Source of the DNA: Spirochaetia bacterium
Lineage (GTDB): Bacteria > Spirochaetota > Spirochaetia > CADAEX01
NCBI GenBank assembly: GCA_963662795.1
Contig: OY759746.1
Location: forward strand, 640,001-704,000
Direction of reading: 5' to 3'
Length of the DNA: 64,000 nt
Both the position numbers and the translations under genes were made by a program. The first letter of the stretch is position 1, and each line of letters starts with the position of its first letter. Shown piece after piece: positions 11,349 through 56,278 of the stretch. The notes beneath the pieces were generated by a model that worked only from the letters and a program-made list of their open reading frames with translations, was not told where the DNA came from and ran no database searches.

Positions 11349-11453
11349 TTTATGAATCCAGGAATTTATTAATGATAACTCCATACATTATAATTATTTA
11401 TTTATATTTTTTTTATTAAATATTTATTGAATCACAATACTAATGGTGATTTT

Positions 11454-13337: not shown

Positions 13338-13472
13338 TACTATATAATTATAACATAAAAAGCAGACACTCAAATATATATATTTGGCATTGATCTCTAT
13401 TAACTTTCAGGAGTACATCATTATGCATAAATTTCTTGACAGATAAATCATTGTACCTGAAAATAAATCACG

Positions 13473-26888: not shown

Positions 26889-26941
26889 TCCGAACCTCTA
26901 TCTTGTTTCAGGCTGCACTACTTTGCTTAATCAATATCAGT

Positions 26942-27583: not shown

Positions 27584-27592
27584 CTTAAAACC

Positions 27593-27898: not shown

Positions 27899-27907
27899 GA
27901 CCGGGCC

Positions 27908-28276: not shown

Positions 28277-28293
28277 AAGTAACTCCTCCTTCT

Positions 28294-30342
28294 TTAGCTG
28301 TTTCCCTTCAACGCGATCGGAGCATAAGCTTTACCGGTACCGCTGAAATATTTGGAAAAGAATTCATAATAATTTAATCTCAAAGACTGAATGCCTGCAG
28401 AGAGGCCTTCAAGTCCGATAACCAGTATATTGCCGGCAACAATTATAAGAATGGACCAGATGTTAAATCCGCCAACTCCTCCTGTTACCATTTTTGAAAT
28501 CTGGTCAAACGCCATCATAAGGCTTACATGGGCTATTCCAAGCCCGGCAACCCTCATGAAGGAGAGCGTATTTGCCAGATATCCGGAAAAAATCTCAAGC
28601 ATTTCGACAAGCCAGTCCATCGAAAAATTCATCAATGAAAATACCGTGAATTTATGGGGGTTATTGGGATGTTTCCTGTTATGAAGTACCATTTCAAGAG
28701 GGGACTTCATCATAAATAAAACAGCCGGAAGGCCGACCAGGAAAAAAAGTGTATTGCCTTCAGGCAGCTGTTTGTAGTCATGCTGAGCGAAAAAGAAAGC
28801 AACATAGGTTCCGGCGCCGTACATCCAGCCTCCGAGCAGTCCGCCCTTATCCAGAAAAAGCCTGAACCAGTTTCCTTTTGAAATACAGTTTATCCAGTTC
28901 AGGATCAGCCCAAGCCCTATTACAGTAATACCGAAATAGATTGTTACAAGGAGTATGCCCGAGATGTCAGTTATAAGTCCCGGCCCTGCATGGCCCGCGA
29001 TTATACCGTGATAGTCAAACCACACAGGATTAAACCATTTATGCCCGAAATATGAACCGAACAGTATTCCTGTTATTATCGCTGATGCGCCGCACCATAT
29101 CATAAGCTGAAACAGCTTATTTGTTCCGCTTCCTGATTCTTTCCGCGTCATGAATATCCCGAAAAGGCCGATTAATGCGATAACAAACCCATGGCCGGCA
29201 TCGCCGAACATCAGACCGAACATTATAAGATAGGCGACAGCAACAATCGGAGTCGGGTCGATTGTTCCGTATTGCGGAATAGCGTAATTTGTAACCAGCA
29301 TTTCAAAAGGGGAAAGAAGCTTCGGATTTTTCATTTTCACGGGAACATCCGGATCTTTTTTATTTATCTTTTTTATTTCCTGGGGATCGCTCCACTCAAG
29401 ATAGCATCTCTTATCTGTGACCTTCAATATAGCGGATTCAAGGGAATCCTTCTTTGATGCCGGAAGCCATCCGGAAAAAAGCATAGTCCGGGATGTCTTG
29501 CTGTAGAAAGACTGCATTTTATAAAAAAGTTCGTTCATTCTCAGATTCGACCACATATCCTCAAGGAAATCCTTTCTGGCAAGGATAAATTCCTTTGCCT
29601 CATTAGCGGTCTCTTCCTGTTTAATTTTAAGATTGTTTATTTTTTCATCAATTTCAGATTTTGCGTTAATTCCAAGATTATCAATATTGCCTGAAACATC
29701 CATTTCTTCCCATTCAAACTTCTGAAGAAGCTTTTCAACCCTCAGGGAATCTCTTTTCATTGTTATCAGCAGTATTGTAATAATTTCTGCCTGCTGACCC
29801 AGCTTTATCTGTACCGACGGAACAGACTGAAAGCTGTTTATAAATTCTTCCTCTTTGGAGTAATGAAGTTTACCGGTCTGGATGGAAAGAAAAGCATATT
29901 TATTTCCTGTTTCAATATTTTCACCAAGACTGTCAAATAAGGCAAGCTGTCTTTTAATTTCTTCAAGCTTGTGAATTTCCTGCTGTATGTTTTTCTGTTT
30001 ATCCCTCATCTTCTGAAGACCGGATGCCACAGAATCAAGCTCATTATTGCACTCTTCAATATCTACAGGGCTTAATTTTGAAACATCAAGGTCCTTTACA
30101 TCAACAGGATTGTGTTCAACAATATTGAAAAAAGAATCAATCCTTCTTCTTGTATCCGCAATTTTACTCTGCGGGACCTTTGGAGAGACATTCGCAAGAT
30201 AGTTTCCTGAATTTTCCGCAACCTCGGTTACTTTAACAAAATGAAGCACTCCCTGCTTAAGCAGTTCTTTGGTTACATTATCAACATCCTGTTCCAGAAC
30301 AATTGCCGCCAGCTGGCACATTTTTGTGGTAAACATTATCAT
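28294..30342 (-). CDS. atpI: V/A-type ATP synthase subunit I
   Basis: GWLP, FGLMFGDAGHG, NTLSFMRV, LRLNYYEFFSKYF. Confidence 0.93.
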   Translation of the reverse strand: MIMFTTKMCQLAAIVLEQDVDNVTKELLKQGVLHFVKVTEVAENSGNYLANVSPKVPQSKIADTRRRIDSFFNIVEHNPVDVKDLDVSKLSPVDIEECNNELDSVASGLQKMRDKQKNIQQEIHKLEEIKRQLALFDSLGENIETGNKYAFLSIQTGKLHYSKEEEFINSFQSVPSVQIKLGQQAEIITILLITMKRDSLRVEKLLQKFEWEEMDVSGNIDNLGINAKSEIDEKINNLKIKQEETANEAKEFILARKDFLEDMWSNLRMNELFYKMQSFYSKTSRTMLFSGWLPASKKDSLESAILKVTDKRCYLEWSDPQEIKKINKKDPDVPVKMKNPKLLSPFEMLVTNYAIPQYGTIDPTPIVAVAYLIMFGLMFGDAGHGFVIALIGLFGIFMTRKESGSGTNKLFQLMIWCGASAIITGILFGSYFGHKWFNPVWFDYHGIIAGHAGPGLITDISGILLVTIYFGITVIGLGLILNWINCISKGNWFRLFLDKGGLLGGWMYGAGTYVAFFFAQHDYKQLPEGNTLFFLVGLPAVLFMMKSPLEMVLHNRKHPNNPHKFTVFSLMNFSMDWLVEMLEIFSGYLANTLSFMRVAGLGIAHVSLMMAFDQISKMVTGGVGGFNIWSILIIVAGNILVIGLEGLSAGIQSLRLNYYEFFSKYFSGTGKAYAPIALKGNS

Positions 30343-31412
30343 ATTACACTCTTTATCCTGTCTTCTTCAATATTATAGTATTTGGCATTAAGTATTGTCA
30401 TAACCTTGCGAAGTTCATTCTTCTTGAGCACAAAGTATGCAAGCACAATACCGATATTAAAGGGATAACCGCCTTTGACTTTCTTCACTTCATAGAGGAT
30501 AACCTGATCGAGAAGCCTGCCGAGCAGCACAAGCTTTGACTGGTTGTCCGAGCTCTGTACAGCCAGCATTGAAGAGAGCGCTGTGTATTTTTTGCTTATC
30601 AGGCTTCTTAAAATCTCTGTTGAGTCTCCTGTATTAAAAGCATCTTCAAGCGCTTTTTTATCAAGATGATGGCCATAGGGGATCATATTAGCCAGGGACT
30701 GATCCATTGTCATCTTGTAAAAATCCCTGAATCTGACAAGCCAGGAGATATTCTCCATATCGATTTCCACGCCGAGCATTCTCTTTGTAATATCAAAATC
30801 CATTTTATCAAGTTTCTTCATCTTGTCATAAAGCTGCTTGTAAAAATATCTGTCAAGAGCAATTTCAACAGGAAAGAGGTTCCTGGCAACATCCATCTGG
30901 GAAGAGTTTTCTTTAATTATCTGGGCATAAGGGGTTCCTGAAAGAACTTCAACAATTCCCTCTATTGAATCGACATTAATTATCTGGTCTACATGAAGAT
31001 CATAATGGATTTTTTCCCTGAAAAGATAACCGGTAAGACCGTCGATATTTCTTTTCCTGATTACACGGTCAAACCATAGTCTTATTGCTGCTTTAAGGTT
31101 TTCAATCTCGTATTTTCCTGTAAGGGCTTTTACAAATTCAAGAACCTCGCCGCTTATATATCTTTCAAGCTCGTGATAAAGCTCAATTTCTTTTTTATAC
31201 AGTTCAAGCTCCGCGAGCTTAAGATCGCCTGTCCTGTTATATACCTCTTCAAGGATCTGAAAAGAAGTATCGTGCAGAATTCTTACGGCTTCGCCGAGAG
31301 ACCTTGACTTGGCCATATTGATAAGTACTTCGTCCGGTAGTATATTGCTTATCCTGGCCCTGAGTTTGGCGTTGATAAAGGCATATTTTTTAAGCCTCGC
31401 CTGCCCGATCAT
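30339..31412 (-). CDS. atpC: V/A-type ATP synthase subunit C
   Basis: YAFINAKLRA, EIDMENI; size and position. Confidence 0.85.
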   Translation of the reverse strand: MIGQARLKKYAFINAKLRARISNILPDEVLINMAKSRSLGEAVRILHDTSFQILEEVYNRTGDLKLAELELYKKEIELYHELERYISGEVLEFVKALTGKYEIENLKAAIRLWFDRVIRKRNIDGLTGYLFREKIHYDLHVDQIINVDSIEGIVEVLSGTPYAQIIKENSSQMDVARNLFPVEIALDRYFYKQLYDKMKKLDKMDFDITKRMLGVEIDMENISWLVRFRDFYKMTMDQSLANMIPYGHHLDKKALEDAFNTGDSTEILRSLISKKYTALSSMLAVQSSDNQSKLVLLGRLLDQVILYEVKKVKGGYPFNIGIVLAYFVLKKNELRKVMTILNAKYYNIEEDRIKSVI

Positions 31413-42555: not shown

Positions 42556-44094
42556 TTAATTTTTAATCTGTCTTATCGTATCGATAATAGTGCCGTCCCT
42601 GTATTCGACAAGGGCTACAATCTTTTTCTCAAACTGTATCTGCTCAGGCCGTCCGACTATTTTTTCCGCCTTGTTTTTAAGCTCATCAATTGAATAGACG
42701 GGAAGCTTGCAGCTCTTAAGCCTTTCCATGATTTCAGGGCGCCTGGGATTTACAGCTATACCCCTGTCCGTGACAAGCACATCGACTGTGGAGCCGGGAG
42801 TAATAACGGTCTGTACGCTGTCAATTACAGTGGCAGTTCTTCCCCGCACTAAAGGGGCCACTATTATGGAAAGGCCTGAACCGACGGCAGTATCAGAATG
42901 ACCTCCTGATGCTCCCCTGATTATTCCGTCGGAGCCTGTTATTACATTAACATTAAAGTCCTTGTCTATCTCAAGAGCGCTTAATATTACAACGTTGAGC
43001 TTGTTGACAGCGCACCCCTTGTTAAGGGGATTGGCATAATAGGATGCGTCAATTTCCGTGTGATAGCGGTTTTCACCTATTGATCTTATCGCCTCTCCGT
43101 CAAAGCTCTGCACATCAAGGAGCCTTCCTATAAATCCGTCCTCGTGCAGCTTTACCATCGGGCCTGAAATACCTCCAAGAGCCCATCTTGCCTTTACATT
43201 TCTCTCTTCCATATATTCCCGCAGGAACCTTGTTACGGCAACGGAAGCTCCGCCGGAGCCTGTCTGGAGCGAAAATCCGTTTTCGAAATATCCTGAGTTG
43301 ACCACAACTTCCGATACAAGCTTTGCAAGGAGAAGGTCGCGCGGGTTTTTTGTTATCCTTGTCGCACCTGTCGTAATTCCCCTGGGATCCCCCACCGAAT
43401 CAACAGCTACAATGTAATCAACCATATCCTGATGGATCGAGAACGGGGTATTGGGATACTCGACAATGTTGTCTGTTATGAGTACCACATTTTTGGCAAA
43501 CCCTGCGTCGACCATTGCATACCCCAATGATCCGCATGCGGATTTGCCGGTATAGCCGTTTGCGTTCCCGTATACGTCGCATGAGGGTACCCCGAGAAAT
43601 GCTACATCTATCACAATCTGACCTGACTCAATTGCCCTGGCCCTTCCGCCGTGGGAATGGATAAGTACCGGTGTTTCCATGATTCCGTTTGAGACTGCCT
43701 CTGCAAGTTCTCCCCGCAGTCCCGAAGTTATTATCCTCTTTATGACTTTATTTTTTATATGTTTTACAAGCGGAGCGTGCACATCGGAGAGCGAGCTTGC
43801 CGCAATCGTGATATCCTTTATCCCCATATTGGCAATAACGTCCATAACCATGTTTACTATTCTGTCGCCGCTTCTGAAGTGGTGATGAAAAGATATTGTC
43901 ATGCCGTCCTTAAGAGCGGTTTTTATTATAACCTGTTCAATTGTATCAACAAGTTTATTCAATTTGGGAAGCTGCCTGTTCCCCTTGTCTTTCTTTACAA
44001 GAGGAGTATATTCATAAGCTCCCCTGAAGGGAGTAAGTATTCCTATGTTATCAACCTTTTCAGGTATTTTTCTTCCAAGCGTGTTTTCTGTCAC
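42556..44094 (-). CDS. citF: Citrate lyase alpha subunit (citrate CoA/ACP-transferase)
   Basis: SFHHHFRSGD, HSHGGRARAI, QTGSGGAS, GASGGHSDTA. Confidence 0.95.
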   Translation of the reverse strand: MTENTLGRKIPEKVDNIGILTPFRGAYEYTPLVKKDKGNRQLPKLNKLVDTIEQVIIKTALKDGMTISFHHHFRSGDRIVNMVMDVIANMGIKDITIAASSLSDVHAPLVKHIKNKVIKRIITSGLRGELAEAVSNGIMETPVLIHSHGGRARAIESGQIVIDVAFLGVPSCDVYGNANGYTGKSACGSLGYAMVDAGFAKNVVLITDNIVEYPNTPFSIHQDMVDYIVAVDSVGDPRGITTGATRITKNPRDLLLAKLVSEVVVNSGYFENGFSLQTGSGGASVAVTRFLREYMEERNVKARWALGGISGPMVKLHEDGFIGRLLDVQSFDGEAIRSIGENRYHTEIDASYYANPLNKGCAVNKLNVVILSALEIDKDFNVNVITGSDGIIRGASGGHSDTAVGSGLSIIVAPLVRGRTATVIDSVQTVITPGSTVDVLVTDRGIAVNPRRPEIMERLKSCKLPVYSIDELKNKAEKIVGRPEQIQFEKKIVALVEYRDGTIIDTIRQIKN

Positions 44095-44991
44095 TTATTC
44101 CTCCCTGCTTGCAGGAATAGTCATTCCTGAGGCTTTTGCAAGTTCAATTATTCTTTCCGCCCGCTCGACAATGGGTTTGTCAACCATTTTTCCGTTGACA
44201 GCTATTACTCCGGATGATTTAGCCTCTGCCTCTTTTATTCCATCAACAACCTGCAGCGCGTGTTCCAGTTCTTCCCGTGCAGGGGCGAATATCCTGTTTA
44301 CAGGATCTATCTGACGGGGACTGATTATTGACTTGCCGTCAAAGCCGAGCTGCTTTATCAGGCTCACTTCCCTGACAAAACCTTCCTCATTGTTAAGATC
44401 TGTATAAACGGTATCAAGTGCGTATATTCCTGCCGCCCGTGCAGCGTTTACTATCATGCTCCTTGCGAAAAGAAGTTCCGTCCCGTCATCGTAGCGCCTT
44501 GTTTTCATGCTTGTAACGTAATCCTCTGCTCCAAGCGCGATCCCTATAAGACGGCTGCTTGAAACTGCGATTGCATAGGCGTTTAAGACTCCTTTTGGGG
44601 TTTCAATTGCTGCCATAAGCTTTATTGTGCCGGCCACGATTCCAAGCTTCTTCTCTTCCTTCCCGACAAGCTCCTCGACATCAAGCAGATCCTGTGCAGT
44701 TTCTGTTTTCGGAAGTCTTATAACTCCCGGCCGGGCAAGTACCATCGCCTTTATGTCTTCCTTCCCGTGCGGGCTGTCAAGTGAGTTGATTCTTACCACA
44801 GTTTCTATTCCCTCATAATCCTGTGTACGAAGCGCTTTATACACCAGAAAGCGGGCGGCGTCTTTTTCATTTACGCTTACGGAATCCTCAAGATCAAACA
44901 TTATTGAATCAGATCTGTATATCTGCGCGTCCTTTACCATTCCGGCGTTATTGCCCGGTACATAAAGCATTGTTCTTCTAAGTTTCTGCAT
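44095..44991 (-). CDS. citE: Citrate lyase beta subunit
   Basis: RRTMLYVPG, FDLEDSV, IALGAEDY, GFDGKS. Confidence 0.95.
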   Translation of the reverse strand: MQKLRRTMLYVPGNNAGMVKDAQIYRSDSIMFDLEDSVSVNEKDAARFLVYKALRTQDYEGIETVVRINSLDSPHGKEDIKAMVLARPGVIRLPKTETAQDLLDVEELVGKEEKKLGIVAGTIKLMAAIETPKGVLNAYAIAVSSSRLIGIALGAEDYVTSMKTRRYDDGTELLFARSMIVNAARAAGIYALDTVYTDLNNEEGFVREVSLIKQLGFDGKSIISPRQIDPVNRIFAPAREELEHALQVVDGIKEAEAKSSGVIAVNGKMVDKPIVERAERIIELAKASGMTIPASREE

Positions 44992-45284
44992 CAGATTTTC
45001 TCCCAGCTGTAGGATGTTATCCCGCAGGCCCTGTAAACAGCTGCGGCAAGCCGGGCTTCAATTGTGCAGTCAAGGGCGCCTTTGTCATTAAGCTGTACCA
45101 CAGCTTCATCAATGCCAAGTACTTCAAGTTTTTCCTTTACTACTTTTTTTATCTGGCTTCCGAACTGCCTCTCTACAATACTCTGAAGAAGTATTTCAAC
45201 CCCTTCCCCCGGGTTTTCCCTTACCGTGACAAGGACATCGCTTGACTCAAGGGTTCCGGCCATTCCGGTTTTCACTACTTTCAT
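44991..45284 (-). CDS. citD: Citrate lyase acyl carrier protein
   Basis: AGTLESSD (prosthetic-group Ser), DKGALDCTI.AR. Confidence 0.93.
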   Translation of the reverse strand: MKVVKTGMAGTLESSDVLVTVRENPGEGVEILLQSIVERQFGSQIKKVVKEKLEVLGIDEAVVQLNDKGALDCTIEARLAAAVYRACGITSYSWEKI

Positions 45285-45327
45285 TTTATAGACCTCTTAT
45301 TTTCTTCAAAATCTGATTCGCGCTTAT

Positions 45328-46812
45328 TTATACAGCGGTTTTATCCTTTTTGCGTAAATAGGGAGAAATAAAAGCAATAAGTGAAATAATTAAAATCACA
45401 AGAGAAATCGGCCTGGTTACAAAACCGAGCCAGCTTCCATCCCCGATTATCAGCTGTTTTCTAAGTGAGTTCTCAGCTATACCGCCGAGAATAAGGCCGA
45501 GAATAAAGGCAGAATTTGAATATTTAAAATGGTCAAATAAATATCCGATAAATCCGAATCCGAACATTATAAGAACATCATAGAAGCTGTTCTGAAGGGA
45601 ATAGGCACCCACTGTCCCGAGGAGAATGATAAGAGTTCCAAGCAGAGGATAAGGCAATTTCAGGATTCTCGCAAATTCCCTGGTCATGAATCTTCCTCCC
45701 AGAAAAAGCAGCAGCGAGGCAATAATTATTGATATAAAGACTGAATTAAGAAGAATAGGCTGATCCTTGAAAAGAAGAGGGCCGGGCCGGAGGCCGTGAA
45801 TCATAAAAGCTGCCATGATTACCGCGGCAGTCGGGCTTCCGGGAATACCGAGAACAAGAGTAGGCACCATTGATCCGCCGACAGCAGCGTTATTCGCGCT
45901 TTCAGGTGCTATGATGCCTTCCGGCTTGCCCTTGCCGAACTCATCAGGATTTTTACTAGACCGCACCGCTTCGCTGTACGCGACAAGCGATGCTATTGAA
46001 CCGCCTGCAGCTGGAATAATTCCAATAACTGTTCCGATTATTGATGACTTGACAAATGTAGCCCACATTTTAAGCATGGCCGATATCTTTTCAAGTTTTA
46101 ATGATATTTTATTTTCAGTAATCAGGTCTGAACTTCTGCTTGCTGTATCGCGGATATTTTTAAAAACTTCTGCAAGTGCAAAAACGCCGATCATTACAGG
46201 TATATAGCTTATACCATTCATCAGGAAAGGCTGGCCGAATGTAAAACGGTTTGATCCATTAATCGGGTCAATACCAATTGTTGAAAATAAAAGGCCGAGA
46301 ATTGCTGAAAGAAGTGATTTAAGCTGGTTTTTTGCACCCAGGCTTGTAATGCAGCTTAAGCCCAGCAGTGCAAGCATAAAATATTCGGCGCTCTGAAACC
46401 TTAAGGCAAGTTTTGCAAGCAAAGGGGCGCTCAAAACCATCATAAATGCAGAAAATATACCGCCGAAGGATGATGCAGTTACCGCAAGTCCTAAAGCCCT
46501 TCCTGATTCACCGCGGAGAGACATGGGATACCCGTCAAATGTTGTTGCAACTGCCTCAGGTGTACCGGGGATGCGGAGAAGTATTGCGGAAATTGAACCT
46601 CCGCAGGCACCTCCTACATAGACTGAAACCAGCGTGACAATTGCTGTAACAGGATTCATTGCATATGTAAAAGGCAATACAAGAATAATTGCCATTGATG
46701 AACTTAAACCAGGCAGCGCGCCGCATACCATTCCAAAAATAGTACCGCCCAGTAAAAGTGCAAAATTAAGCGGATTTGCCATGAAAATAATTGATTGTAG
46801 CAAAATTTCCAA
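45328..46812 (-). CDS. tctA: Tripartite tricarboxylate transporter large subunit
   Basis: GALPGL, IPGTP..ATTFDGYPM, APESANNA, LGIPGS. Confidence 0.93.
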   Translation of the reverse strand: MEILLQSIIFMANPLNFALLLGGTIFGMVCGALPGLSSSMAIILVLPFTYAMNPVTAIVTLVSVYVGGACGGSISAILLRIPGTPEAVATTFDGYPMSLRGESGRALGLAVTASSFGGIFSAFMMVLSAPLLAKLALRFQSAEYFMLALLGLSCITSLGAKNQLKSLLSAILGLLFSTIGIDPINGSNRFTFGQPFLMNGISYIPVMIGVFALAEVFKNIRDTASRSSDLITENKISLKLEKISAMLKMWATFVKSSIIGTVIGIIPAAGGSIASLVAYSEAVRSSKNPDEFGKGKPEGIIAPESANNAAVGGSMVPTLVLGIPGSPTAAVIMAAFMIHGLRPGPLLFKDQPILLNSVFISIIIASLLLFLGGRFMTREFARILKLPYPLLGTLIILLGTVGAYSLQNSFYDVLIMFGFGFIGYLFDHFKYSNSAFILGLILGGIAENSLRKQLIIGDGSWLGFVTRPISLVILIISLIAFISPYLRKKDKTAV

Positions 46813-46851
46813 AATAAAACCTCCTGCTTTTATAAACCAAAAGCATTACTG

Positions 46852-47334
46852 CTAATAAATGAAATAACTTAATTCCCGTAAAAATCCAATTCCGCGCGGA
46901 AGCGGGACATAAAACAGTTTGCCGAAAAGAATTACAAAGATTGCTGTAACAATTGATGAATAAAGCAGTAAAAGCAGGTTTTTTTTGTAACCCATAGACC
47001 TGGCCGCGCTCAGTGAGTATAAGAATGTTGTCAGGATATAGCCGGTAATATTAAGCAATGAAATATATGCTGTAAACAGAACAATATTTAATACTATAGT
47101 TTTTCCCGAACCGGTACTAAAATCAATAATTTTAATTTTGGAATATTCTTTTTTCCGGAATTGAATAATTATTATAACTGCTAAAATAATTATTCCAATT
47201 ATTATAAGTAATGCAGGGAAACCGCTGGATTTCAGTAAATCTCCATCAACTGAATCATTTCTGAAAGTTGCTGAAACAAAAAGCATCGCAGCAAGGAATA
47301 CTCCAACCGCGATATTAAACACCTGTTCTCCCAT
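46852..47334 (-). CDS. tctB: Tripartite tricarboxylate transporter small subunit
   Basis: 4 TM segments, C-terminal VPLPRG. Confidence 0.85.
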   Translation of the reverse strand: MGEQVFNIAVGVFLAAMLFVSATFRNDSVDGDLLKSSGFPALLIIIGIIILAVIIIIQFRKKEYSKIKIIDFSTGSGKTIVLNIVLFTAYISLLNITGYILTTFLYSLSAARSMGYKKNLLLLLYSSIVTAIFVILFGKLFYVPLPRGIGFLRELSYFIY

Positions 47335-47441
47335 AAATCCTCCTGTCTGGTTATCTGCATGATTTTTAAATAAGAAATGCCGCAGCCATGTATAAATTGA
47401 ACTGCAATTTAAGGCAGCCGCGGCAGCATAATTTTTTTAAT

Positions 47442-48446
47442 TTATTTTATTAATCCGCTTTTCGTGAATATTGTAACATATCCCTGATATTCAGCGTCCC
47501 ACATCTTTGCAAAATCATCAGCTTTGGCATAGCCCGGCCTGATATTTGTCATTGCTTTCTCTTCCATCGCCTTATAGCCGGGATCCTCATAAGCTTTCTG
47601 CAGCGCATCAATAAGAATTGCCTTGACATCAGCAGGTACTCCTTTCCTGATTGCGAAACCTCTCCATGATCCCTGTGTAAAATTGATTCCAAGTTCCACT
47701 GAGCATGGAAGGTCTTTAATTTCCGCAACCTGTGTAAGTCTGGTATCGTTAAGGACTGCCAGCGGCCTTATGTCGCCTGACGCAACAAGCGGAAGAAAGG
47801 AAATCAATTTATCCTGGTAAACATCAAGCTCTCCTCCAAGAACAGCTGCCTTGATCTCAGAACCTGACTTATAAGGAACATATGTCCATTCAATTCCGGC
47901 CGCTTCGGAAAATCCGCTCTGCATATAATCATCAAGACCGCCTGGTGATAATCCGCCGATTTTCAGTTTTTTGGGATTTTCTTTTGCGAACGCTCTCAAC
48001 TCCTCAAATGTTTTAAACGGGCTTTTTGCCGCTACTCCGATCAGCTGCACATCTGCCTGGACCTTAAGCAGGGGTTCAAAATTTTCACGGAAATTTATCT
48101 GACTTGCCTTGAGAGCTTCCTTGATAAGAAGTGAAGGAGTTATTTCAAGAATAGTGTAACCGTCAGCAGGTGCGTTATAAGCATATGTCATTCCCTCAAC
48201 TGTGCCTGCGCCGCCCTTGTTGATGGCTGTGATCGGCTTTCCAAGATATTTTTCAGCGAGCTGCGCATACTGTCTTGCAAAAATATCACTGGCTCCTCCT
48301 GCTCCGAACGGGATAACCATTTCCACAGGCCTTTTTGGAAAATCTGTCTTCAGCGCTGCTGCGCTTCCCGCTTCACACTTTCCGCCGGCATAAAGCATGG
48401 CGCCTGCTAAAGTCAAAATCAGTAAAAATAGAATTGATTTTTTCAT
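47442..48446 (-). CDS. tctC: Tripartite tricarboxylate transporter substrate-binding protein
   Basis: FPKRPVEMVIPFGAGGASD, ADGYT, VPYKSG. Confidence 0.92.
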   Translation of the reverse strand: MKKSILFLLILTLAGAMLYAGGKCEAGSAAALKTDFPKRPVEMVIPFGAGGASDIFARQYAQLAEKYLGKPITAINKGGAGTVEGMTYAYNAPADGYTILEITPSLLIKEALKASQINFRENFEPLLKVQADVQLIGVAAKSPFKTFEELRAFAKENPKKLKIGGLSPGGLDDYMQSGFSEAAGIEWTYVPYKSGSEIKAAVLGGELDVYQDKLISFLPLVASGDIRPLAVLNDTRLTQVAEIKDLPCSVELGINFTQGSWRGFAIRKGVPADVKAILIDALQKAYEDPGYKAMEEKAMTNIRPGYAKADDFAKMWDAEYQGYVTIFTKSGLIK

Positions 48447-48464
48447 TAGTTTCTCCTCTTTGAA

Positions 48465-49601
48465 TTATTTATAATATACTGTACCTTGCATGATCAGCCT
48501 GGCTGTCCTGTAGCCTACTGCCCACGCAATATTCAGATCACCCTTATTTTCCCGTTCAGCAATTACCCCTGCAGGAATAATGCCTCCGGGATGCCCGATC
48601 AATACTGATTCCGGATTAAAACCGGATTTTATAAATCTGTTTACTATTGTACCCTCAATTACCGCGGCTCCTGCCGTACAGAGGGCGCCGGTAAGGGCGT
48701 ATGTCTTGTGTGTCTTCTGCATTGACATCATTCTTCCGGTTATATCAATTTCTTCTTTTGATATTTTAATACCTGATGCTGAGGTATAACTTTTGGATTC
48801 TGAAATGATTGTCATTTTAGGAACTGCGGGTGATTTGACAGAAGACTGATCAGGATCATCAATAAATCCCAATAGGTGTGCAGCTACCCCCCTTATTCTT
48901 TCAATCCGTTCAAGCATGGCAGGATTTGAGTCAATTGCATCAGGCAGTTCTGTCCCTTCAAGTCCTGCATCTTCCGCTTTAACAAATACAGCCGGATTTG
49001 TGACATCAACAATAGATATTCCGATCTTTCCGATTCCCTTAACATCAATAATGTCATAAGGACTCCCGGTAGGCAGAAGTGTCCCGGTAACCGCGCCTGC
49101 AGGATTCATAAAAGCCAGTTTGATTTTTGAAGCTGTTCCCGGAACACCTGATATTGAAAAATCACCGTAATACTCTACCCGCCCGCCGGGTGTCGGAACA
49201 TAGGAATGAATAATCTTGTTGGTATTTGTATTATATATTCTTACCACTGTTTCAGGGTTTACTGCTTCTACAAGGCCTGCCTCAAGTGCATAGGGACCTA
49301 CTGCTGAAGACATATTGCCGCAGTTGCCGTTATAGTCAACTATAGGTTTGTCTATTGATACCTGCGCGAAAGTATAATCCACATCAGCATCTGCCCTCTC
49401 TGATCTGGAAATAATCGCAACCTTGCTTGTCGTGGATACAGCGCCGCCCAATCCGTCTATCTGCCGGATATCCGGGCTTCCCATAACGCTTAATAAAAGA
49501 GAATCACGGCTGCCGCCTTTTTCAGGAAGCAGCTCTTCCCGGAAAAAAACTCCCCTGCTTGTGCCGCCCCTGAAAATTGTACATTCAATCTTTTTCATCA
49601 T
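48465..49601 (-). CDS. prpF: PrpF-family isomerase (aconitate/methylaconitate/methylitaconate isomerase-like)
   Basis: RGGTSRG, QIDGLGG..STTSKV, GNCGNM (catalytic Cys), HPGG, RTAR. Confidence 0.88.
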   Translation of the reverse strand: MMKKIECTIFRGGTSRGVFFREELLPEKGGSRDSLLLSVMGSPDIRQIDGLGGAVSTTSKVAIISRSERADADVDYTFAQVSIDKPIVDYNGNCGNMSSAVGPYALEAGLVEAVNPETVVRIYNTNTNKIIHSYVPTPGGRVEYYGDFSISGVPGTASKIKLAFMNPAGAVTGTLLPTGSPYDIIDVKGIGKIGISIVDVTNPAVFVKAEDAGLEGTELPDAIDSNPAMLERIERIRGVAAHLLGFIDDPDQSSVKSPAVPKMTIISESKSYTSASGIKISKEEIDITGRMMSMQKTHKTYALTGALCTAGAAVIEGTIVNRFIKSGFNPESVLIGHPGGIIPAGVIAERENKGDLNIAWAVGYRTARLIMQGTVYYK

Positions 49602-49630
49602 ATTACTTCACCCTTAATTTCTTTATCAGT

Positions 49631-51562
49631 TTAACGGCCGCCGGCAGATGCATAATTAAGTGCGCCGCCGGAGAGAATTATTTCTTTCTGTCTTTTTGTG
49701 AGATTACAGACAGTATTGATTTCCAGACCCTTAGTAATGTTTTTTACAACAACATTTTCCCGGTCAGTAAGTAAATCAAGATTATCAATTTCAATCCTGT
49801 CGCCTGTCTCAATTTTTTCATAATCGTTTTCGTTTTGAAAAAGAAGCTGAAGAATGCCGAAATTAACAAGATTCGCGGAATGGATCCGCTCAACACTTTT
49901 AGCCAGCAGGACCCTTACACCCAGATGCATCGGGCATATGGCAGCATGCTCACGCGATGAACCCTGCCCGTAACTTAACCCGGCAATAATAACTGAGTGC
50001 AGACCTTCTGCAGAATTATTTTTACAACGTCCGGCGAAGTCAGGATCAATATTATGAAAAACATATTCAGAATATTTAGGAATATTTGATCTGTATTTCA
50101 GATACTGGCCTGCAGGCATTATATGATCTGTAGTAATCTTGTCCCCAACTTTTATGGCAGCGGCTGCTTTTAAATTTGCAGGCATCCCGGTATTTACCGG
50201 AGGATTACCGATATTTGGACCTCTGAAAACTTTAATTTCTTTTCTGCATGACGGTTCTATAATCAGCCCGTCGTCAATTATGAATTTTTCAGGCACTGAT
50301 ACTGAAGGATAAGGGATATCAAGACTTCGGGGATCAGTAATTACACCTTTAAGTGCGGATGCAGCTGCAATTTCAGGACTTACAAGATATACCTGCGCAT
50401 CTTTAGTGCCGCTTCTCCCTTCAAAATTTCTGTTGTTTGTACGAAGCGATACACCGCCGCTCTGCGGAGCCTGTCCGCAGCCGACACAAAAACCGCATGT
50501 AGTCTCAAGAATTCTCGCCCCCGCCTTTAAAAGGCTTCCCAGGCTCCCGTCATGTGCAGCCATTGCAAGAACCTGTTTTGAACCTGGCGCCAAACCAAAA
50601 CTTATCTCAGGATGAACCCTGCGCCCTGCAAGTATCCCGGCAATTACTGAAACATCCCTGTATGATGAATTTGTACAGCTGCCGGCAAGCACCTGATTGA
50701 CTTTAAGGCCTTCAATTTCACTTACCCGGCACACGTTATCCGGAGAATGCGGACAGGCTGCCATAGGTTCAATATTATCAAGCTCAATATCAATGATCCG
50801 GCTGTATAATGCATCAGCATCCGGCAATAGGGGCTTCCACTGATTTTCCCTGCCCTGGGCTTTGAAAAACTGCCCTGTTACTTCATCGCTCGGGAAAACC
50901 GAGGTCGTGACTCCCAGTTCGGCGCCCATATTTGATATTGTAGCCCGCTCAGGCACGCTCAAAGTCGGCAGACCTGAACCGCCGTATTCAAGGACTTTAC
51001 CGACATTCCCCTTTGTTGTAAGGAGTTTTAAAATCTGAAGTATTATATCTTTTGCAGAACACCAGGGTTTAAGATTACCGTTAAGATTAATCCTGATTAC
51101 CTGCGGATAGACAAAATAGTAAGGCCCTCCAGCCATAGCCACCGCTACATCAAGGCCCCCGACTCCCATTGCTGCCATTGCAGCTGCGCCGCATGTCGGA
51201 GTGTGGCTGTCAGAGCCTATCAGAACAGCACCCGACCGGCTGAAGCGCTCAAGGTGGACCTGATGGCATATCCCGTTACCGGGTTTTGAAAATTTTATCC
51301 CATACCTGTCTGCCGCAGTCTGTAAATACATATGGTCATCAGCATTTTCAAATCCATCCTGAAGAGTGTTATGATCAACATAAGAGACAGATTCGGTTTT
51401 TACCCTGTCTACATTCATGGATTCAAACTGCAGGTAAGCCATTGTGCCAAGCGCATCCTGGGTAAGAGTTTGGTCAACCTTTATACTGATTTCATTTCCC
51501 GGGATCATTTTTCCTGAAACAAGGTGTTCTGAGATTATTTTTTCAAATATGTTAAGACCCAT
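49631..51562 (-). CDS. Aconitate hydratase (single-chain ~640-aa type)
   Basis: QDALGTM, DHN, GICHQ, DSHT, GSCTN, CGFCVG, NRNFEGR, TTDHI, GSSREHAA. Confidence 0.92.
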   Translation of the reverse strand: MGLNIFEKIISEHLVSGKMIPGNEISIKVDQTLTQDALGTMAYLQFESMNVDRVKTESVSYVDHNTLQDGFENADDHMYLQTAADRYGIKFSKPGNGICHQVHLERFSRSGAVLIGSDSHTPTCGAAAMAAMGVGGLDVAVAMAGGPYYFVYPQVIRINLNGNLKPWCSAKDIILQILKLLTTKGNVGKVLEYGGSGLPTLSVPERATISNMGAELGVTTSVFPSDEVTGQFFKAQGRENQWKPLLPDADALYSRIIDIELDNIEPMAACPHSPDNVCRVSEIEGLKVNQVLAGSCTNSSYRDVSVIAGILAGRRVHPEISFGLAPGSKQVLAMAAHDGSLGSLLKAGARILETTCGFCVGCGQAPQSGGVSLRTNNRNFEGRSGTKDAQVYLVSPEIAAASALKGVITDPRSLDIPYPSVSVPEKFIIDDGLIIEPSCRKEIKVFRGPNIGNPPVNTGMPANLKAAAAIKVGDKITTDHIMPAGQYLKYRSNIPKYSEYVFHNIDPDFAGRCKNNSAEGLHSVIIAGLSYGQGSSREHAAICPMHLGVRVLLAKSVERIHSANLVNFGILQLLFQNENDYEKIETGDRIEIDNLDLLTDRENVVVKNITKGLEINTVCNLTKRQKEIILSGGALNYASAGGR

Positions 51563-51696
51563 AGAACAGGTACCTCCATGGCAGTAAACCGAATTATATT
51601 TTTTACGTTAACATGGCAATATCAATAAGTAAAATATTATATTTTTATTGCTTTCCATAAAAATATTTTATATCATCTCGCAGGGGGAGATGAATT

Positions 51697-52578
51697 ATGG
51701 ATGAACGGGACTGGATAATGCTTAAAACAATCGCAGATGAGAAAAGTATTACAAAAACCGCGGAAAAACTGTATATATCTCAGCCGGCAATTACGTACAG
51801 GCTCCGGGCAATGGAAAACGAGTTTAAGTGTAAAATAGTTTTCAGGACTTCCAATGGAGTAATGCTCACTCCCCAGGGAGAATTCCTCCTTTCCCATGTC
51901 AGGGAGATGATTCTCAAACTTACAAAAACAAAAGAGCGGGTACAGAGCATAAGCGGCAAGGTAAGCGGACCGCTGCGCATAGGATCATCCGCAATTTTTG
52001 CAGCCTTTATACTGCCGGATCTTCTGCAGGGATTTCTGGAAAAATATCCCGAAGTTGAAATATTTCTCAATACAGGAAGAAGCAGGGAAGTAACAAAAAT
52101 GCTCGGCAATGAGGAAGTTGCAGTTGCTATAGTCCGGGGCGATTATCCATGGAAAGAGAAAAAACTTTTTTTGCGCGAGGAAAATATCTGTCTTGTCTCG
52201 TGTGCCAGGCTTGAAATTGAGGAACTGCCTGAAAAACCCAGGATTATATACAGCACCGATTCGTCGCTGCAGAAAATGGTTGATGACTGGTGGCATGAAA
52301 CCTTTTTCAAGCCGTCTTATGTATCGATGGCAGTGGATACCATGGATATCTGCCGCAGGATGGTAAAAAAGAACCTGGGCTGGGCAATTCTGCCTGATAT
52401 CGGTATGAGCGAGCTTGGCGGGATTCATAAAACAAATCTTTACTGGAAAGACGGGAAGCCTGTAGCGAGGCGTACATGGCTTTACTGCCACAATTATTCA
52501 CTTGAGCTGCCAGCCGTAACAGCGTTCATCGCATATCTGGAAGAAAACATCAGCACGATTCAGGAAAAATATTCATGA
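51697..52578 (+). CDS. LysR-family regulator (divergent from the aconitase operon)
   Basis: SITKTAEKLYISQPAITYRL HTH, LysR substrate domain. Confidence 0.93.
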   Translation: MDERDWIMLKTIADEKSITKTAEKLYISQPAITYRLRAMENEFKCKIVFRTSNGVMLTPQGEFLLSHVREMILKLTKTKERVQSISGKVSGPLRIGSSAIFAAFILPDLLQGFLEKYPEVEIFLNTGRSREVTKMLGNEEVAVAIVRGDYPWKEKKLFLREENICLVSCARLEIEELPEKPRIIYSTDSSLQKMVDDWWHETFFKPSYVSMAVDTMDICRRMVKKNLGWAILPDIGMSELGGIHKTNLYWKDGKPVARRTWLYCHNYSLELPAVTAFIAYLEENISTIQEKYS

Positions 52579-52590: not shown

Positions 52591-53220
52591 TTATTCAATC
52601 TGCAGATCCCCTGCAATATCAATGCTGCAGTTGTAGTCTGCAGGGGATGTTTTTGAATTAAAGGCAATCACAGGTACCAGGCCTTCCTGGATTGAGCTAT
52701 GGGAGGGTACAGATATATATGCATCAAATATTCAATTATGAAAACATACTGGATATCTGATCCCTTTTCTTATATTGTTTGATGAAGGGCGCGGTAAAGC
52801 AGGTGGTTAATAGACGCTGAATAAATTTTTTCAGCCCTGTCGGTTTTACACACAAGTCCGCAATTGGATCCCCGGCAGATACGAAAAAAGAGATTCCCTG
52901 TTTCAGTTTCATTTTTGGTTTGTTTTTTAATGTAAATACCGCAGCCTTAAGGCGACCTGTAAGCATTTTGAAAAATATTTTCAGCACAGAGGAATTCAGG
53001 CTATTTCGGATATGTACCGGCGTTATTTTCAGTAATTCCATGGACAGCAGGTCAGGCGCTGCATACTGTTAAAACGCTGTTTACATTTGAAACGGCTTTA
53101 TGACAGATAATACTTCACACTTCTTTCCTAAAGCCGGTTTTAATCTTTTGCCTGATACTGGATATATTAATAGTCAAAATATTGCCTGTTTCCGGCATCA
53201 ATTAATAATTTTCTTTTCAC
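52591..53220 (-). pseudogene. Decayed copy of the phosphonoacetate hydrolase gene
   Basis: Colinear DNA similarity to 54290-55399 (start MKRKLLIDAG vs MKRKILIAVIDAG; end DIAGDLQ vs DIAGNLQ; shared gatgaagggcgcggta). Early stop, frameshifts and an internal deletion of roughly 480 bp. Confidence 0.85.
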
Positions 53221-53236
53221 TACAATCTGTTGTCAT

Positions 53237-54100
53237 TTACGCGTTGTTCATCAGGGCGCTTACCTCATCATGCATTTTTTTCCACGCCTCAACGGTGTAG
53301 TCCGGGCCATAGGAAAAAGGAGGAGTTTCTATGCACATTGTCCCTTTATAATCCAGTTTCCTGACTTCCTTAAAGAACTCCTTCCAGAAAAATCTGCCGT
53401 GCCCCGGGGCAAGATGGGAATCCCTGTCTCCGGCATTGTCAGCAAGGTGGAATGCTATGAGTTTTTTCTTCATGAAATCAAAAACATCCATGGCCTTTTC
53501 ATGATGCGAGACAAGGGCATGTCCTGTGTCAAGGCAGAAACCAAGCTGCGGATGATCATAGCGCCTTGTAATTTCCTTAAGATGGTTTATATTGCTTCCA
53601 AGCCGGTCACCCATGTTGGGGAGCATATTTTCAACAGCTAATTTAAAACCGTAAAGTTCACAGTGCCTGAGCAGCGCTTCAAGTGTCTTCCCGAGCTGTT
53701 CCATCAGGCGCGGAAATCCCTCCTCTTCAGTAAGGCAGTCTTTCTTTGTTGTAGGATGAAGGATCCCTATTGACGCGCCGAGGATAACAGCCCTGTCAAT
53801 TTCTCTTTTCATTTTATACTCAACCTTCTTCCTGTCTGCCTCATAAAGGGCTGAGATATCATCTTTGACCGGGTCTGCAAAGGGAAGGTGATATGTTTCA
53901 ATTACAAGTCCTGCTTTTTTGAAAAGAGCACCTGCATCCTCAAGCTCTTTTTCCTTCAGTTTTTCAAACATGGCAGTGCAGCCTTCCATGCCGGCAAAAC
54001 CTGAATCAAGGCATATTTTTACAATCTGCTCAAAGCTCTTTCCTGTTTTCTGAAATCCTGAATTTACTGATGCAATGGTAAATCCTTTTATTTCCGACAT
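53237..54100 (-). CDS. Sugar phosphate isomerase/epimerase (AP-endonuclease-2 TIM barrel), copy B
   Basis: AVENM, CLDTGHA, HLADN...DSHLAPG.G, IE metal ligands. Confidence 0.85.
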   Translation of the reverse strand: MSEIKGFTIASVNSGFQKTGKSFEQIVKICLDSGFAGMEGCTAMFEKLKEKELEDAGALFKKAGLVIETYHLPFADPVKDDISALYEADRKKVEYKMKREIDRAVILGASIGILHPTTKKDCLTEEEGFPRLMEQLGKTLEALLRHCELYGFKLAVENMLPNMGDRLGSNINHLKEITRRYDHPQLGFCLDTGHALVSHHEKAMDVFDFMKKKLIAFHLADNAGDRDSHLAPGHGRFFWKEFFKEVRKLDYKGTMCIETPPFSYGPDYTVEAWKKMHDEVSALMNNA

Positions 54101-54289
54101 AGTAAATCCTCCATATGATAAATTTATTATACATTGATTTTTACAGGGATTGTATAGAAAAAAAACCTGTTGGCAGCCCTAAACCGGACAATTTTCTCAT
54201 TTCGTTTTAAAAAGAGCCGCTTTATAATTTATATGAGGAAGACAGCAGGGATCAATGTCCGATAGAGTTTAAGAAAAACCGGGCAATGG

Positions 54290-55399
54290 CTAATGCTGAA
54301 GATTCCCTGCTATATCAATGCTGCAGCTGTAGTCTGAAGGGGATGTCTTTGAATTATAGGCAATCACAGGGACGCGGCCTTCATAAGTTGAACCGTGTGA
54401 GCGGATTGATATCTCCCTTACATCCTCATCAAATTCGCTGAATACTGTATCAATATCGCCCAAGACCACTATATCACCGATTCTTTCAGGCATGAGATGG
54501 AAAACAGATGCAGCCTCTTCCCGGCTGTAAACCTTCTCAACGCCTGCGATGCTCCCTAAAATTGCCGAAGCTGATTCCCTTGTTTTATCAAATAAATTTT
54601 TATATTCGCTGTCCAGGTAGATATAGGCTATGCCGCCGAGGTTTTCATGGTGAACAACGTATTTATCTTTGATGACAGGTATGAACTCAGCTGATATGTT
54701 CTCCCTTGCAAGAAAATTGAGAAGATTAACTGCCCTGCTCTTGGGATTCATCCCGTGGTCAGCTGTCATGTAGACTTCCATATCGGGATAATCATTTAAG
54801 ATCATTCCAAGGACAGAATCAATACCGTTCATATGGGATATTGATACTTCGTGTTCAGGCGGATATTTATGCATTACATAATCAGTAGTGGAAATATAAT
54901 GAATATCAAAATCCTCTTCCTTCATTTTATGATGAAGGGCGCGGTACAGCCAGTGGTTGATACCGGCAGAGTATACATCTTCCGCAGGACCGACAGCACT
55001 TACAAGCCCCGGAGCCGGATTCTCGGCAGAAACAGAGAATGAGGCACCCTGCTCAAGCATCAGCTTAAGTTTGTTTTTTGACGTAAAGACAGCAGATTTC
55101 AGGCCGGAGCGGGCGGATTTCTGAAACAGGTTTTCAGCCAGCAGGAATTCCGGAGATTCCATATATGTGCCGGCACCGGTTTGGGGATTGTGCCAGTAAT
55201 TTGCCGTTATTCCATGAACTTCCGGCCAGGCGCCGCATACAATCGATACATTGTTTACATTTGTGACTGAAGGGATAACAGATGATACTTCTTTCATAAA
55301 TCCGCTTTTAATCATCTGCCTTATATTGGGAATATCTGCAGACAGAAAATATTCACTGCTTCCCGCGTCAATAACTGCGATAAGTATTTTTCTTTTCAT
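54290..55399 (-). CDS. phnA: Phosphonoacetate hydrolase-like (alkaline phosphatase superfamily)
   Basis: PSVTNVNNVSI..G.WP.VHGI.ANY, STTDYVMHKY, TADHGM, RSHG match PhnA motifs. Confidence 0.8.
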   Translation of the reverse strand: MKRKILIAVIDAGSSEYFLSADIPNIRQMIKSGFMKEVSSVIPSVTNVNNVSIVCGAWPEVHGITANYWHNPQTGAGTYMESPEFLLAENLFQKSARSGLKSAVFTSKNKLKLMLEQGASFSVSAENPAPGLVSAVGPAEDVYSAGINHWLYRALHHKMKEEDFDIHYISTTDYVMHKYPPEHEVSISHMNGIDSVLGMILNDYPDMEVYMTADHGMNPKSRAVNLLNFLARENISAEFIPVIKDKYVVHHENLGGIAYIYLDSEYKNLFDKTRESASAILGSIAGVEKVYSREEAASVFHLMPERIGDIVVLGDIDTVFSEFDEDVREISIRSHGSTYEGRVPVIAYNSKTSPSDYSCSIDIAGNLQH

Positions 55400-55414
55400 T
55401 TCATCCCCCTGCGG

Positions 55415-56278
55415 TCACGCCTGATGCATGATGACGGAGACCTCATCATGCATCTTTTTCCATGCTTCAACTGAGTAGTCAGGGCCGTATGAAAACGGCG
55501 GCGTCTCTACACACATGAAACCACTGTAGTTTATTTTTTTAAACTCCTCTGCAAACTCTTTCCAGAAAAATCTTCCGTGGCCGGGAGCGAGATGAGAATC
55601 CCTGTCTCCGGAGTTATCCGCAAGATGAAATGCTATAAGCCGGTCCTTCATGAAATGAAAAACATCCATCGCCTTTTCATGATGGGAAACCAGGGCATGA
55701 CCTGTATCAAGGCAAAAACCAAGAAGAGGGTGGTCATTGCGTTTCAGAATCATCTCCAGATGTATTATTTTTGATCCCAGTCTGTCGCCGAGATACGGCA
55801 GCATGTTTTCCACTGCGATTTTAAAACCGTACTGCTCGGAATGCCTCAGTGTCCCCTGAATTGTCTTTCCTGCCTGCCCGAGAAGCCTGTCAAGTCCTTC
55901 ATCTTCTGTGAGGCAGTCTTTTTTTGAAGTGGGATGAATCACTCCGACAGAGGCCCCGAGCGCGACAGCAATATCTATATGCTTTTTCAGATTATTTTCT
56001 ACTTTTCTGCGGTCTGTTTCATAAAGGGTCGCAATATCATTTAAAAGGGGATCTTTATAGGGAAGATGATAGGTTTCAATTACAAGACCTGCATCCCTGA
56101 AAAGCTTCCTTATTCTTTCAAGCTCTTTAAAAGGAACTTTTTCGAAGAGATTAGGTCCCCCTTCAAGCCCTTCAAATCCAGACTTAAGGCATATATCGAC
56201 AATCTGCTCAAAACTTTTTCCGGTTCTGTCAAACCCGGAGTTTGCAGCAGCAATGGCAAATCCTTTAATTACTGACAT
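55415..56278 (-). CDS. Sugar phosphate isomerase/epimerase (TIM barrel), copy A
   Basis: Same motifs and same 287-aa length as 53237-54100. Confidence 0.85.
   Translation of the reverse strand: MSVIKGFAIAAANSGFDRTGKSFEQIVDICLKSGFEGLEGGPNLFEKVPFKELERIRKLFRDAGLVIETYHLPYKDPLLNDIATLYETDRRKVENNLKKHIDIAVALGASVGVIHPTSKKDCLTEDEGLDRLLGQAGKTIQGTLRHSEQYGFKIAVENMLPYLGDRLGSKIIHLEMILKRNDHPLLGFCLDTGHALVSHHEKAMDVFHFMKDRLIAFHLADNSGDRDSHLAPGHGRFFWKEFAEEFKKINYSGFMCVETPPFSYGPDYSVEAWKKMHDEVSVIMHQA

Follow-up and report, generated by a model that had tools for sequence, protein, structure and literature searches.

A candidate operon for the fermentation of aconitate

In a 64,000-nt stretch of DNA (hereafter the window) from the 3.93-Mb single-contig genome of a Spirochaetia bacterium (G000:C1:640001-704000; 39.7% GC), nine genes form a locus that we interpret as an inducible operon for the fermentation of trans-aconitate, and probably of aconitate in general. 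From the sequence and its comparative context, we put the probability of this interpretation at roughly 0.6. The locus comprises a gene for a LysR-type regulator and, divergent from it, eight co-oriented genes that specify an aconitase, a PrpF-family isomerase, the TctC, TctB and TctA components of a tripartite tricarboxylate transporter (TTT), and the CitD, CitE and CitF subunits of citrate lyase (Table 1). Eight co-oriented genes under a divergent LysR gene had already been described in an earlier reading of this DNA (the sequence-only reading); its gene borders proved to be exact, and its family calls all held when we compared the encoded proteins with Pfam (using gathering scores) and with NCBIfam (using equivalog cut-offs). 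All nine open reading frames (ORFs) exceeded the Pfam gathering scores by a wide margin.

The genes of the operon are separated by gaps of -1 to 107 bp, the divergent gap between the LysR gene and the aconitase gene measures 134 bp, and the stop codon of citF lies 4 bp from that of a convergent MarC-family gene. Terminator-like sites on the minus strand were absent between the operon genes; a few occur within coding regions, where they are no commoner than in shuffled sequence. Both the importer and the lyase are complete, in that TctC, TctB and TctA are encoded together and the alpha, beta and gamma subunits of citrate lyase are all encoded in the operon, and no gene of the major facilitator superfamily (MFS) lies within it. 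The nine-gene arrangement is more than chance, because a second genus of the family has the identical gene order (locus L003 of the Spirochaetia metagenome-assembled genome (MAG) G012, with 62-88% protein identity) and because the core, a LysR gene divergent from aconitase-PrpF-TctCBA, recurs in four Treponemataceae/Spirochaetota loci (L004-L006 and L009).

In the pathway that we propose, a tricarboxylate would be bound by TctC in the periplasm and imported by TctBA, the PrpF-family isomerase would move the double bond to give cis-aconitate, the private aconitase would hydrate cis-aconitate to citrate, and CitDEF would cleave citrate to acetate and oxaloacetate. A CcpC-like LysR protein would sense the tricarboxylate and act from a conserved AT-rich operator. 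The remaining functions would be supplied in trans: CitC and CitXG, encoded at a second citrate locus, would build and acetylate the prosthetic group of the lyase, and the operon would likewise depend on the Na+-type oxaloacetate decarboxylase, which is encoded at or beside that same locus.

The argument for trans-aconitate starts from the lyase. The CitDEF proteins of the window are 97-99% identical to those of the second citrate locus, which argues that the enzyme is a citrate lyase and that the upstream steps must deliver citrate. Since citrate has a separate locus, with a TctC that is 29% identical to that of the window, the extra aconitase suggests a substrate that precedes citrate by one step; among the entry substrates considered, an added aconitase is needed only for aconitate (cis or trans) or isocitrate. 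An isomerase is needed only for trans-aconitate or a substituted analogue, and therefore points to trans-aconitate. The route that the sequence-only reading had put forward, from import through cis-aconitate and citrate to acetate plus oxaloacetate, gives the best fit to the comparative evidence, although the identity of the window PrpF as an aconitate isomerase is still something that we infer.

Table 1 Features of the candidate aconitate operon (positions are those of the window)
Feature	Position	Strand	Evidence or remark
LysR-type regulator, CcpC-like	51697..52578	+	Pfam HTH_1 and LysR_substrate; divergent from the operon
Aconitate hydratase, 643 aa, PRK07229 type	49631..51562	-	NCBIfam PRK07229, 883.6 bits (cut-off 612)
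PrpF-family delta-isomerase, proposed aconitate isomerase	48465..49601	-	Pfam PrpF, 448 bits
TctC periplasmic solute-binding protein	47442..48446	-	Pfam TctC, 117.7 bits; hydrophobic N-terminus, predicted signal peptide
TctB small membrane subunit	46852..47334	-	Pfam TctB, 54.5 bits
TctA large membrane subunit	45328..46812	-	Pfam TctA, 495.9 bits
CitD, citrate lyase acyl carrier protein (gamma subunit)	44991..45284	-	TIGR01608, 115 bits (cut-off 63.5)
CitE, citrate lyase beta subunit	44095..44991	-	TIGR01588, 443.1 bits (cut-off 443.4, 0.3 under); Pfam HpcH_HpaI, 258.8 bits
CitF, citrate lyase alpha subunit	42556..44094	-	TIGR01584, 771.5 bits (cut-off 501.45)
Duplicated tract, from 22 nt 5' of citD through the citF stop codon	42556..45306	-	97.2% match to the second locus
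Conserved AT-rich block, probable LysR operator and promoters	51605..51675	.	Kept in 6 of 6 aligned loci

The isomerase, the aconitase and the importer

The PrpF gene of the window is present as a single copy in the genome. Residues Lys60 and Cys94 of its product align with K73 and C107 of PrpF from Shewanella, which are catalytic in that enzyme, an enzyme that also has aconitate isomerase activity according to the available text of PMC5690661. Moreover, the motif GNCGN is present in 78 of the 79 full-length PrpF homologues. Note that TarA, a PrpF-superfamily isomerase considered further below, and TbrA are only 33% identical to each other (as given in the available text of PMC11495376); sequence similarity therefore cannot settle the substrate of a PrpF protein, and the context must.

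The window aconitase is 52% identical to a second aconitase of the genome (3361405-3363315; PRK07229, 957 bits). With respect to the importer, TctC of the window is 57-80% identical to the TctC that adjoins PrpF in 12 other loci (and 44% identical to that in a further locus, L008). None of the seven other TctC paralogues of the genome is more than 33% identical to it. The genome encodes eight full-length TctA paralogues, and the identity of the window TctA to the other seven is 37-43%.

Dependence on a second citrate locus and duplication of citDEF

The cluster had been called self-contained by the sequence-only reading, and in this respect that reading has to be corrected. None of CitC, CitX and CitG is encoded in the window. 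Instead, citC was found once in the genome (1236388-1237497) and a fused citXG only at 1243455-1244879, both within the second citrate locus (L002), which lies approximately 550 kb away and contains genes for a histidine kinase and a response regulator, citC, citDEF, tctCBA and citXG. The histidine kinase and response regulator genes are upstream, a LysR gene in the opposite orientation is downstream of citXG, and the genes for the beta and alpha subunits of oxaloacetate decarboxylase (oadB/oadA) lie approximately 4-7 kb beyond citXG. The two loci share a near-identical CitDEF and a TTT importer but differ in that the citrate locus has the ligase and the holo-acyl carrier protein enzymes, lacks an aconitase and PrpF, and specifies a more distant importer, in which TctA is 38% identical to that of the window and TctC, as noted above, 29%.

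The near-identity of the lyases extends to the DNA. The citDEF tract of the window is 97.2% identical to genome positions 1237471-1240222 over 2752 nt, and the flanks are unrelated. Both copies look functional, because of the 66 codon differences between them 56 are synonymous (and 10 non-synonymous). The repeat is real: in organism A, and likewise in organism B, which comes from a different study and contains 77% of the words of the cluster, contigs stop at either border of the tract. In organism B, citDEF is spanned by a 2666-nt contig, which two different contigs, the second from another flank, join at the citD end. (This check used short-read contigs alone, and depth was not taken as copy number.)

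The relative with the identical gene order, G012, also has two CitDEF sets. These are 70-82% identical to each other, and the second citDEF lies beside a TctC of the citrate-locus type. Both CitDEF sets of the window genome are nearer to the set in the aconitate cluster of this relative (76-88%) than to the one at its citrate locus (69-82%). The simplest reading of these comparisons is that an old duplication was followed by gene conversion or re-duplication in the window lineage and that the citDEF type of the aconitate cluster would, in the process, have replaced the copy at the citrate locus. Since this type of lyase now stands beside citC and citXG, it can be argued to be an ordinary citrate lyase. 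The duplication would represent a case in which a catabolic module borrowed and then homogenised a shared downstream enzyme, with the accessory genes in trans. At least two copies of citF are present in several of the surveyed genomes. (In the genome of L005, G062, there are two citF matches, of 784.9 and 784.5 bits, on two contigs, one of them at a contig start; this second lineage may also have near-identical citDEF duplicates.)

Conservation of the locus and context of PrpF genes in other bacteria

Among the four spirochaete core loci without a full adjacent citDEF, pieces of lyase genes are found at contig ends in two (citE in L005 and citC in L004). Moreover, of the five genomes that contain the core without a full adjacent citDEF, four encode a full-length CitF elsewhere, and in the fifth there is a fragment at a contig end. 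(In L004, from Treponemataceae, a second gene for a 643-aa aconitase, at 9476-11392, follows directly after tctA and precedes the start of citC at the contig end.) The flanks of the window cluster gave no tblastn match in L003 and are not common to the two loci, so that synteny could not date the insertion. The base composition of the cluster gives no sign of foreign origin, its GC content being 43.9% as compared with 39.7 +/- 3.9% for 10-kb windows of the genome (z = 1.09).

A cluster survey had been proposed in the sequence-only reading. We surveyed one genome per species and the best 80 of 110 PrpF relatives, with partners mapped by tblastn within 8 kb or less on the same strand; 42 of these loci have at least 5 kb on both sides. 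The results depicted in Table 2 bear out the association of PrpF with aconitase-family genes, carriers, divergent LysR genes and citD/E/F.

Table 2 Partners of PrpF in the surveyed loci
Partner	All loci	Loci with full flanks
Aconitase-family gene	37/80	20/42
643-aa-type aconitase	6/80	4/42
YbhJ-type aconitase	32/80	16/42
TTT system	13/80	9/42
MatC/CitMHS carrier	48/80	25/42
Either carrier (TTT or MatC/CitMHS)	61/80	34/42
Divergent LysR upstream	57/80	34/42
citD/E/F	21/80	14/42

Where citD/E/F is present, it is accompanied by an aconitase-family gene in 20 of 21 loci. In particular, the loci of Lacrimispora, other Lachnospiraceae, an Oscillospiraceae MAG and a termite Treponema have a LysR gene followed by carrier, PrpF, hydratase and CitDEF, mostly with CitXG and CitC thereafter. 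The 760-aa hydratase of those loci is 66-70% identical to YbhJ of Escherichia coli, of which the Bacillota relatives of the window locus carry orthologues, and is 27% identical to the window aconitase. That two unrelated aconitase subfamilies occupy one slot is consistent with a requirement for the aconitase reaction itself. (In L010, from an uncultured Clostridiaceae MAG, genes for an MmgE/PrpD-family protein, PrpF, both a YbhJ-type and a 643-aa aconitase, CitDEF, a LarA-like protein and TctC lie in one operon at 323-12390; because both hydratase types coexist there, they may not be interchangeable.)

In a quick IQ-TREE phylogeny of PrpF with support from the Shimodaira-Hasegawa-like approximate likelihood ratio test (SH-aLRT), the window protein pairs with that of L003 (SH-aLRT 99). 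This pair falls within a clade of 12 rows (99) in which Spirochaetota and Bacillota are mixed and in which a TTT system adjoins PrpF in 11 of the 12; adjacency to citDEF occurs on several separate branches of the tree. (The PrpF of a contig labelled 'Candidatus Shapirobacteria', L007, is nearly identical to that of the Treponemataceae contig L014, and the clusters on two MAG contigs labelled 'Paenibacillaceae', L079 and L080, are nearly identical to those of Lacrimispora; L007, L079 and L080 are likely mis-binned.)

The LysR regulator and a probable operator

The best NCBIfam match of the LysR protein is CcpC, with 234 bits and thus under the cut-off of 400, and CcpC is also its best solved relative (5Z72; 165 bits, E 1.8e-47). 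CcpC is responsive to citrate and binds ATAA-N7-TTAT boxes. Within the intergenic region, an AT-rich block of approximately 70 bp is conserved in all six of the regions that were aligned (those of the window, L003-L006 and L009). Two symmetrical elements lie within this block in the window, namely the 15-bp palindrome AAAATAT-N-ATATTTT (51631-51645) and a dyad of the form ATAA-N7-TTAT (51657-51671). Promoter-like hexamers are present on both strands at 51598-51635; note that a promoter and terminator scan found promoter-like sites of this region to be no commoner than in shuffled sequence. The conserved block is a probable LysR operator and probably includes the promoters.

Comparison with known systems

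The closest characterised system is tarR-tarAB of Bacillus velezensis FZB42, in which a LysR activator responsive to trans-aconitate is combined with TarA, an isomerase of the PrpF superfamily, and TarB, an importer of the MFS, and whose homologues are reported by its authors as widely distributed (available text of PMC11495376). The window locus resembles it in three respects: the LysR gene is divergent, the key enzyme is an isomerase of the PrpF superfamily, and the operon includes a dedicated importer. The differences are that TctCBA takes the place of an MFS protein and that the window adds a private aconitase and a citrate lyase, which argues that the product is cleaved fermentatively and not fed to an aerobic tricarboxylic acid cycle. 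As judged from its gene content, the window operon most likely follows a logic similar to that of tarR-tarAB in a new layout, with a TTT importer, a private aconitase and citrate lyase. The sequence-only reading had taken the operon to be uncharacterised. Consistent with this, no published description of it was found in the literature searched for it, and the available text of PMC11495376, like that of a 2026 follow-up, contains no mention of citrate lyase, anaerobes or tripartite transporters; tarR-tarAB is, however, a relative that has been characterised.

Anaerobic trans-aconitate fermentation has been known biochemically since the 1990s, and the literature found ties no gene cluster to it. 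The trans-aconitate fermentation of Acidaminococcus fermentans was reportedly described by Cook and Russell (1994) and by Hartel and Buckel (1996). In this organism trans-aconitate is fermented via citrate, oxaloacetate and pyruvate (as cited in the available text of PMC3035267), so that the physiology that the sequence-only reading had named for the genus is on record. The genome paper of Acidaminococcus assigns aconitases, MatC carriers and citDEF to this route and, in the text available, lists no isomerase (PMC3035267). We found a PrpF-family match in all 17 of the genomes of this genus (that of L047) and a close orthologue (at least 66% identity) in 10 of the 17. At the ten orthologue loci, MatC adjoins PrpF in every case, a divergent LysR gene is present in nine and, the loci being short, five show the beginning of a gene of the YbhJ type. 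Thus, Acidaminococcus shares with the window the proposed chemistry in an anaerobe and a module in which a divergent LysR gene stands beside PrpF and MatC, with or without a YbhJ-type aconitase, the PrpF proteins being 53% identical. It differs in having a MatC/CitMHS carrier and a 760-aa YbhJ-type hydratase where the window has a TTT system and a 643-aa aconitase, and in belonging to a phylum other than the Spirochaetota.

A further relative is the E. coli locus L083, in which ybhD is divergent from ybhH-ybhI-ybhJ and which has no assigned function (according to the available text of PMC9068703). This locus likewise combines a divergent LysR gene, a PrpF-family protein (YbhH, 40% identical to that of the window), an anion carrier and an aconitase-family hydratase. 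In contrast to the window locus, its hydratase is of the 750-aa type (YbhJ, only 27% identical to the window aconitase), its carrier YbhI is of another family with no homologue in the window operon, and no citrate lyase is adjacent.

We are tempted to carry the argument across these loci, though with less than even confidence. The widespread, cross-phylum family of LysR, carrier, PrpF, hydratase and often CitDEF in anaerobes would be the genetic basis, hitherto missing, for the fermentation of trans-aconitate without oxygen; its aconitases would be the proteins of the YbhJ type, and ybhD-ybhHIJ would thereby be assigned a function; and the private citDEF would have overwritten the copy at the citrate locus, with one lyase type serving both pathways. 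Plants contain trans-aconitate in abundance, and the acid inhibits aconitase. If our interpretation is true, the operon and its relatives supply genes for the whole route in anaerobes, extend the tar system of 2024 to a binding-protein-dependent importer and a fermentative outlet, and provide a directly testable substrate for the unassigned YbhH and YbhJ of E. coli.

Alternative explanations

Several observations weigh against an operon for trans-aconitate. The window PrpF falls below both NCBIfam equivalog cut-offs (356 of 440 bits for 4-oxalomesaconate (OMA) tautomerase and 321 of 440.55 for prpF). Its closest solved relative is the 3-methylitaconate isomerase (Mii) of Eubacterium barkeri (3G7K, 329 bits), Shewanella PrpF (2PVZ) reaching only 294 bits; further solved relatives are YbhH (6OTV, 232 bits) and oxalomesaconate isomerases (206-211 bits). 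It is 34% identical to a PrpF protein encoded beside a DMT transporter on a Bacillus thuringiensis plasmid, a protein that we would regard, from its DMT-transporter neighbour alone, as TbrA-like, in agreement with the published description of tbrA-tbrB. The solved relatives of TctC are all distant (at most 125 bits), and its ligand is not readable from the sequence. The intergenic region of 134 bp does not contain TTATAA, the motif of TarR. In our survey, citDEF is not adjacent in 59 of the 80 PrpF loci, and none of an aconitase, a carrier and citD/E/F accompanies PrpF in 14 of the 80 (6 of the 42 with full flanks). Moreover, the cluster is rare: PrpF is present in 2 of 41 genomes of relatives, the window's own included (none of the 2 congeneric genomes and 1 of the 19 others from the family), and in a sample of the class 4 of 301 genomes, again including that of the window, match at E <= 1e-60, only two of them closely. 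This rarity has no bearing on function but leaves few independent replicates of the exact layout.

We considered whether the operon might instead serve for the uptake of cis-aconitate, isocitrate or mixed tricarboxylates, with PrpF doing no more than salvage trans-aconitate that arises spontaneously and would inhibit aconitase. For cis-aconitate or isocitrate the aconitase and CitDEF would be sufficient, trans-aconitate is a competitive inhibitor of aconitase (according to the available text of PMC13188880), and the ligand of TctC is not fixed by sequence. We nevertheless think this unlikely, given that PrpF and its TctC travel together across phyla (in 13 TTT-linked loci, with the TctC identities given above) and that many loci consist of LysR, PrpF and a carrier only, without an aconitase; in these the isomerase is therefore the core catalytic step, as it is in tarAB. 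More doubtful still is a substituted analogue as the substrate, i.e., a tri- or dicarboxylate bearing a methyl, hydroxy or methylene group, with PrpF acting as a 3-methylitaconate or 2-methylaconitate isomerase and the aconitase and lyase acting on the substituted product. The best match in the Protein Data Bank, 3G7K, speaks for such a substrate, as do the names 3-methylitaconate or 2-methylaconitate isomerase that some homologues carry in their sources. In the nicotinate pathway of E. barkeri, too, an isomerase is followed by an aconitase-family hydratase and a lyase, and the neighbours of Mii are 2-methyleneglutarate mutase, the split hydratase DmdAB and dimethylmalate lyase. However, the partner families of the nicotinate pathway were absent from the ORFs of the window (the search being of the window alone), where there is no mutase, DmdAB-type split hydratase or PEP-mutase-type lyase, and the window lyase is a three-subunit citrate lyase that is 97-99% identical to that of the citC-citDEF-tctCBA-citXG locus. 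Furthermore, the window aconitase passes the aconitate hydratase equivalog (884 vs 612 bits) and fails that of AcnD (156 vs 1420), and the genome has no match to prpB at the cut-off (best, 130 bits vs 354).

The same scores led us to reject a methylcitrate role of the AcnD/PrpF kind (AcnD, 156/1420; prpF, 321/440.55; prpB, 130/354). The AcnD-PrpF branch of 2-methylcitrate metabolism in Shewanella oneidensis (available text of PMC5690661) resembles the window locus in pairing a PrpF-family isomerase with an aconitase-family enzyme and in the conserved catalytic Lys and Cys, but the window has no AcnD, the PrpF equivalog is not reached, and the only citrate-synthase-family gene of the genome, at 1.139 Mb, is unlinked to the cluster. 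The sequence-only reading had noted the absence of genes for methylcitrate synthase and lyase, and family scans found none in the 64-kb window; prpB, as stated, is without a match at the cut-off genome-wide. As for the idea that the locus is a second citrate-uptake operon in which the aconitase and PrpF are anabolic, housekeeping or mere neighbours, a TTT system and CitDEF would suffice for citrate fermentation, and the other locus of the genome is so arranged. We find it very improbable, since a housekeeping aconitase paralogue is present elsewhere in the genome, PrpF has no role in citrate cleavage, the TctC proteins of the two loci are so dissimilar (29% identity), and other spirochaete loci keep aconitase-PrpF-TctCBA under LysR without a full adjacent citDEF. 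We also rejected the idea that trans-aconitate is produced or exported, because binding-protein-dependent TTT systems import and citrate lyase is a catabolic enzyme. Fermentation of trans-aconitate is thus the reading that we prefer.

Other features of the window

Beyond the LysR gene, two paralogous genes for xylose-isomerase-like TIM-barrel proteins (53237-54100 and 55415-56278) flank a gene for a PhnA-like phosphodiesterase (54290-55399). The DNA at 52712-53926 is 68% identical to that at 54862-56104, and 52600-52686 is 88% identical to 54296-54382; these repeats (52600-56278) therefore look like an old tandem duplication that included an upstream element. On the minus strand at 2726-13373, a cluster under a PrpR_N/sigma-54 activator (11454-13373) specifies a four-carbon acid-sugar kinase-like protein (SBD_N/NBD_C), an Fe-alcohol dehydrogenase, a PdxA-family dehydrogenase, a DHDPS-family lyase, an amino-acid-type ABC transporter and an aminotransferase, and has the look of a catabolic island. 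The minus strand also carries a complete operon for a V-type ATPase (23073-31412), and subunits of an Mrp-type antiporter are encoded at 14280-18304; the ATPase and the antiporter are of interest for a Na+-based energy economy beside the Na+-type oxaloacetate decarboxylase that is encoded elsewhere in the genome.

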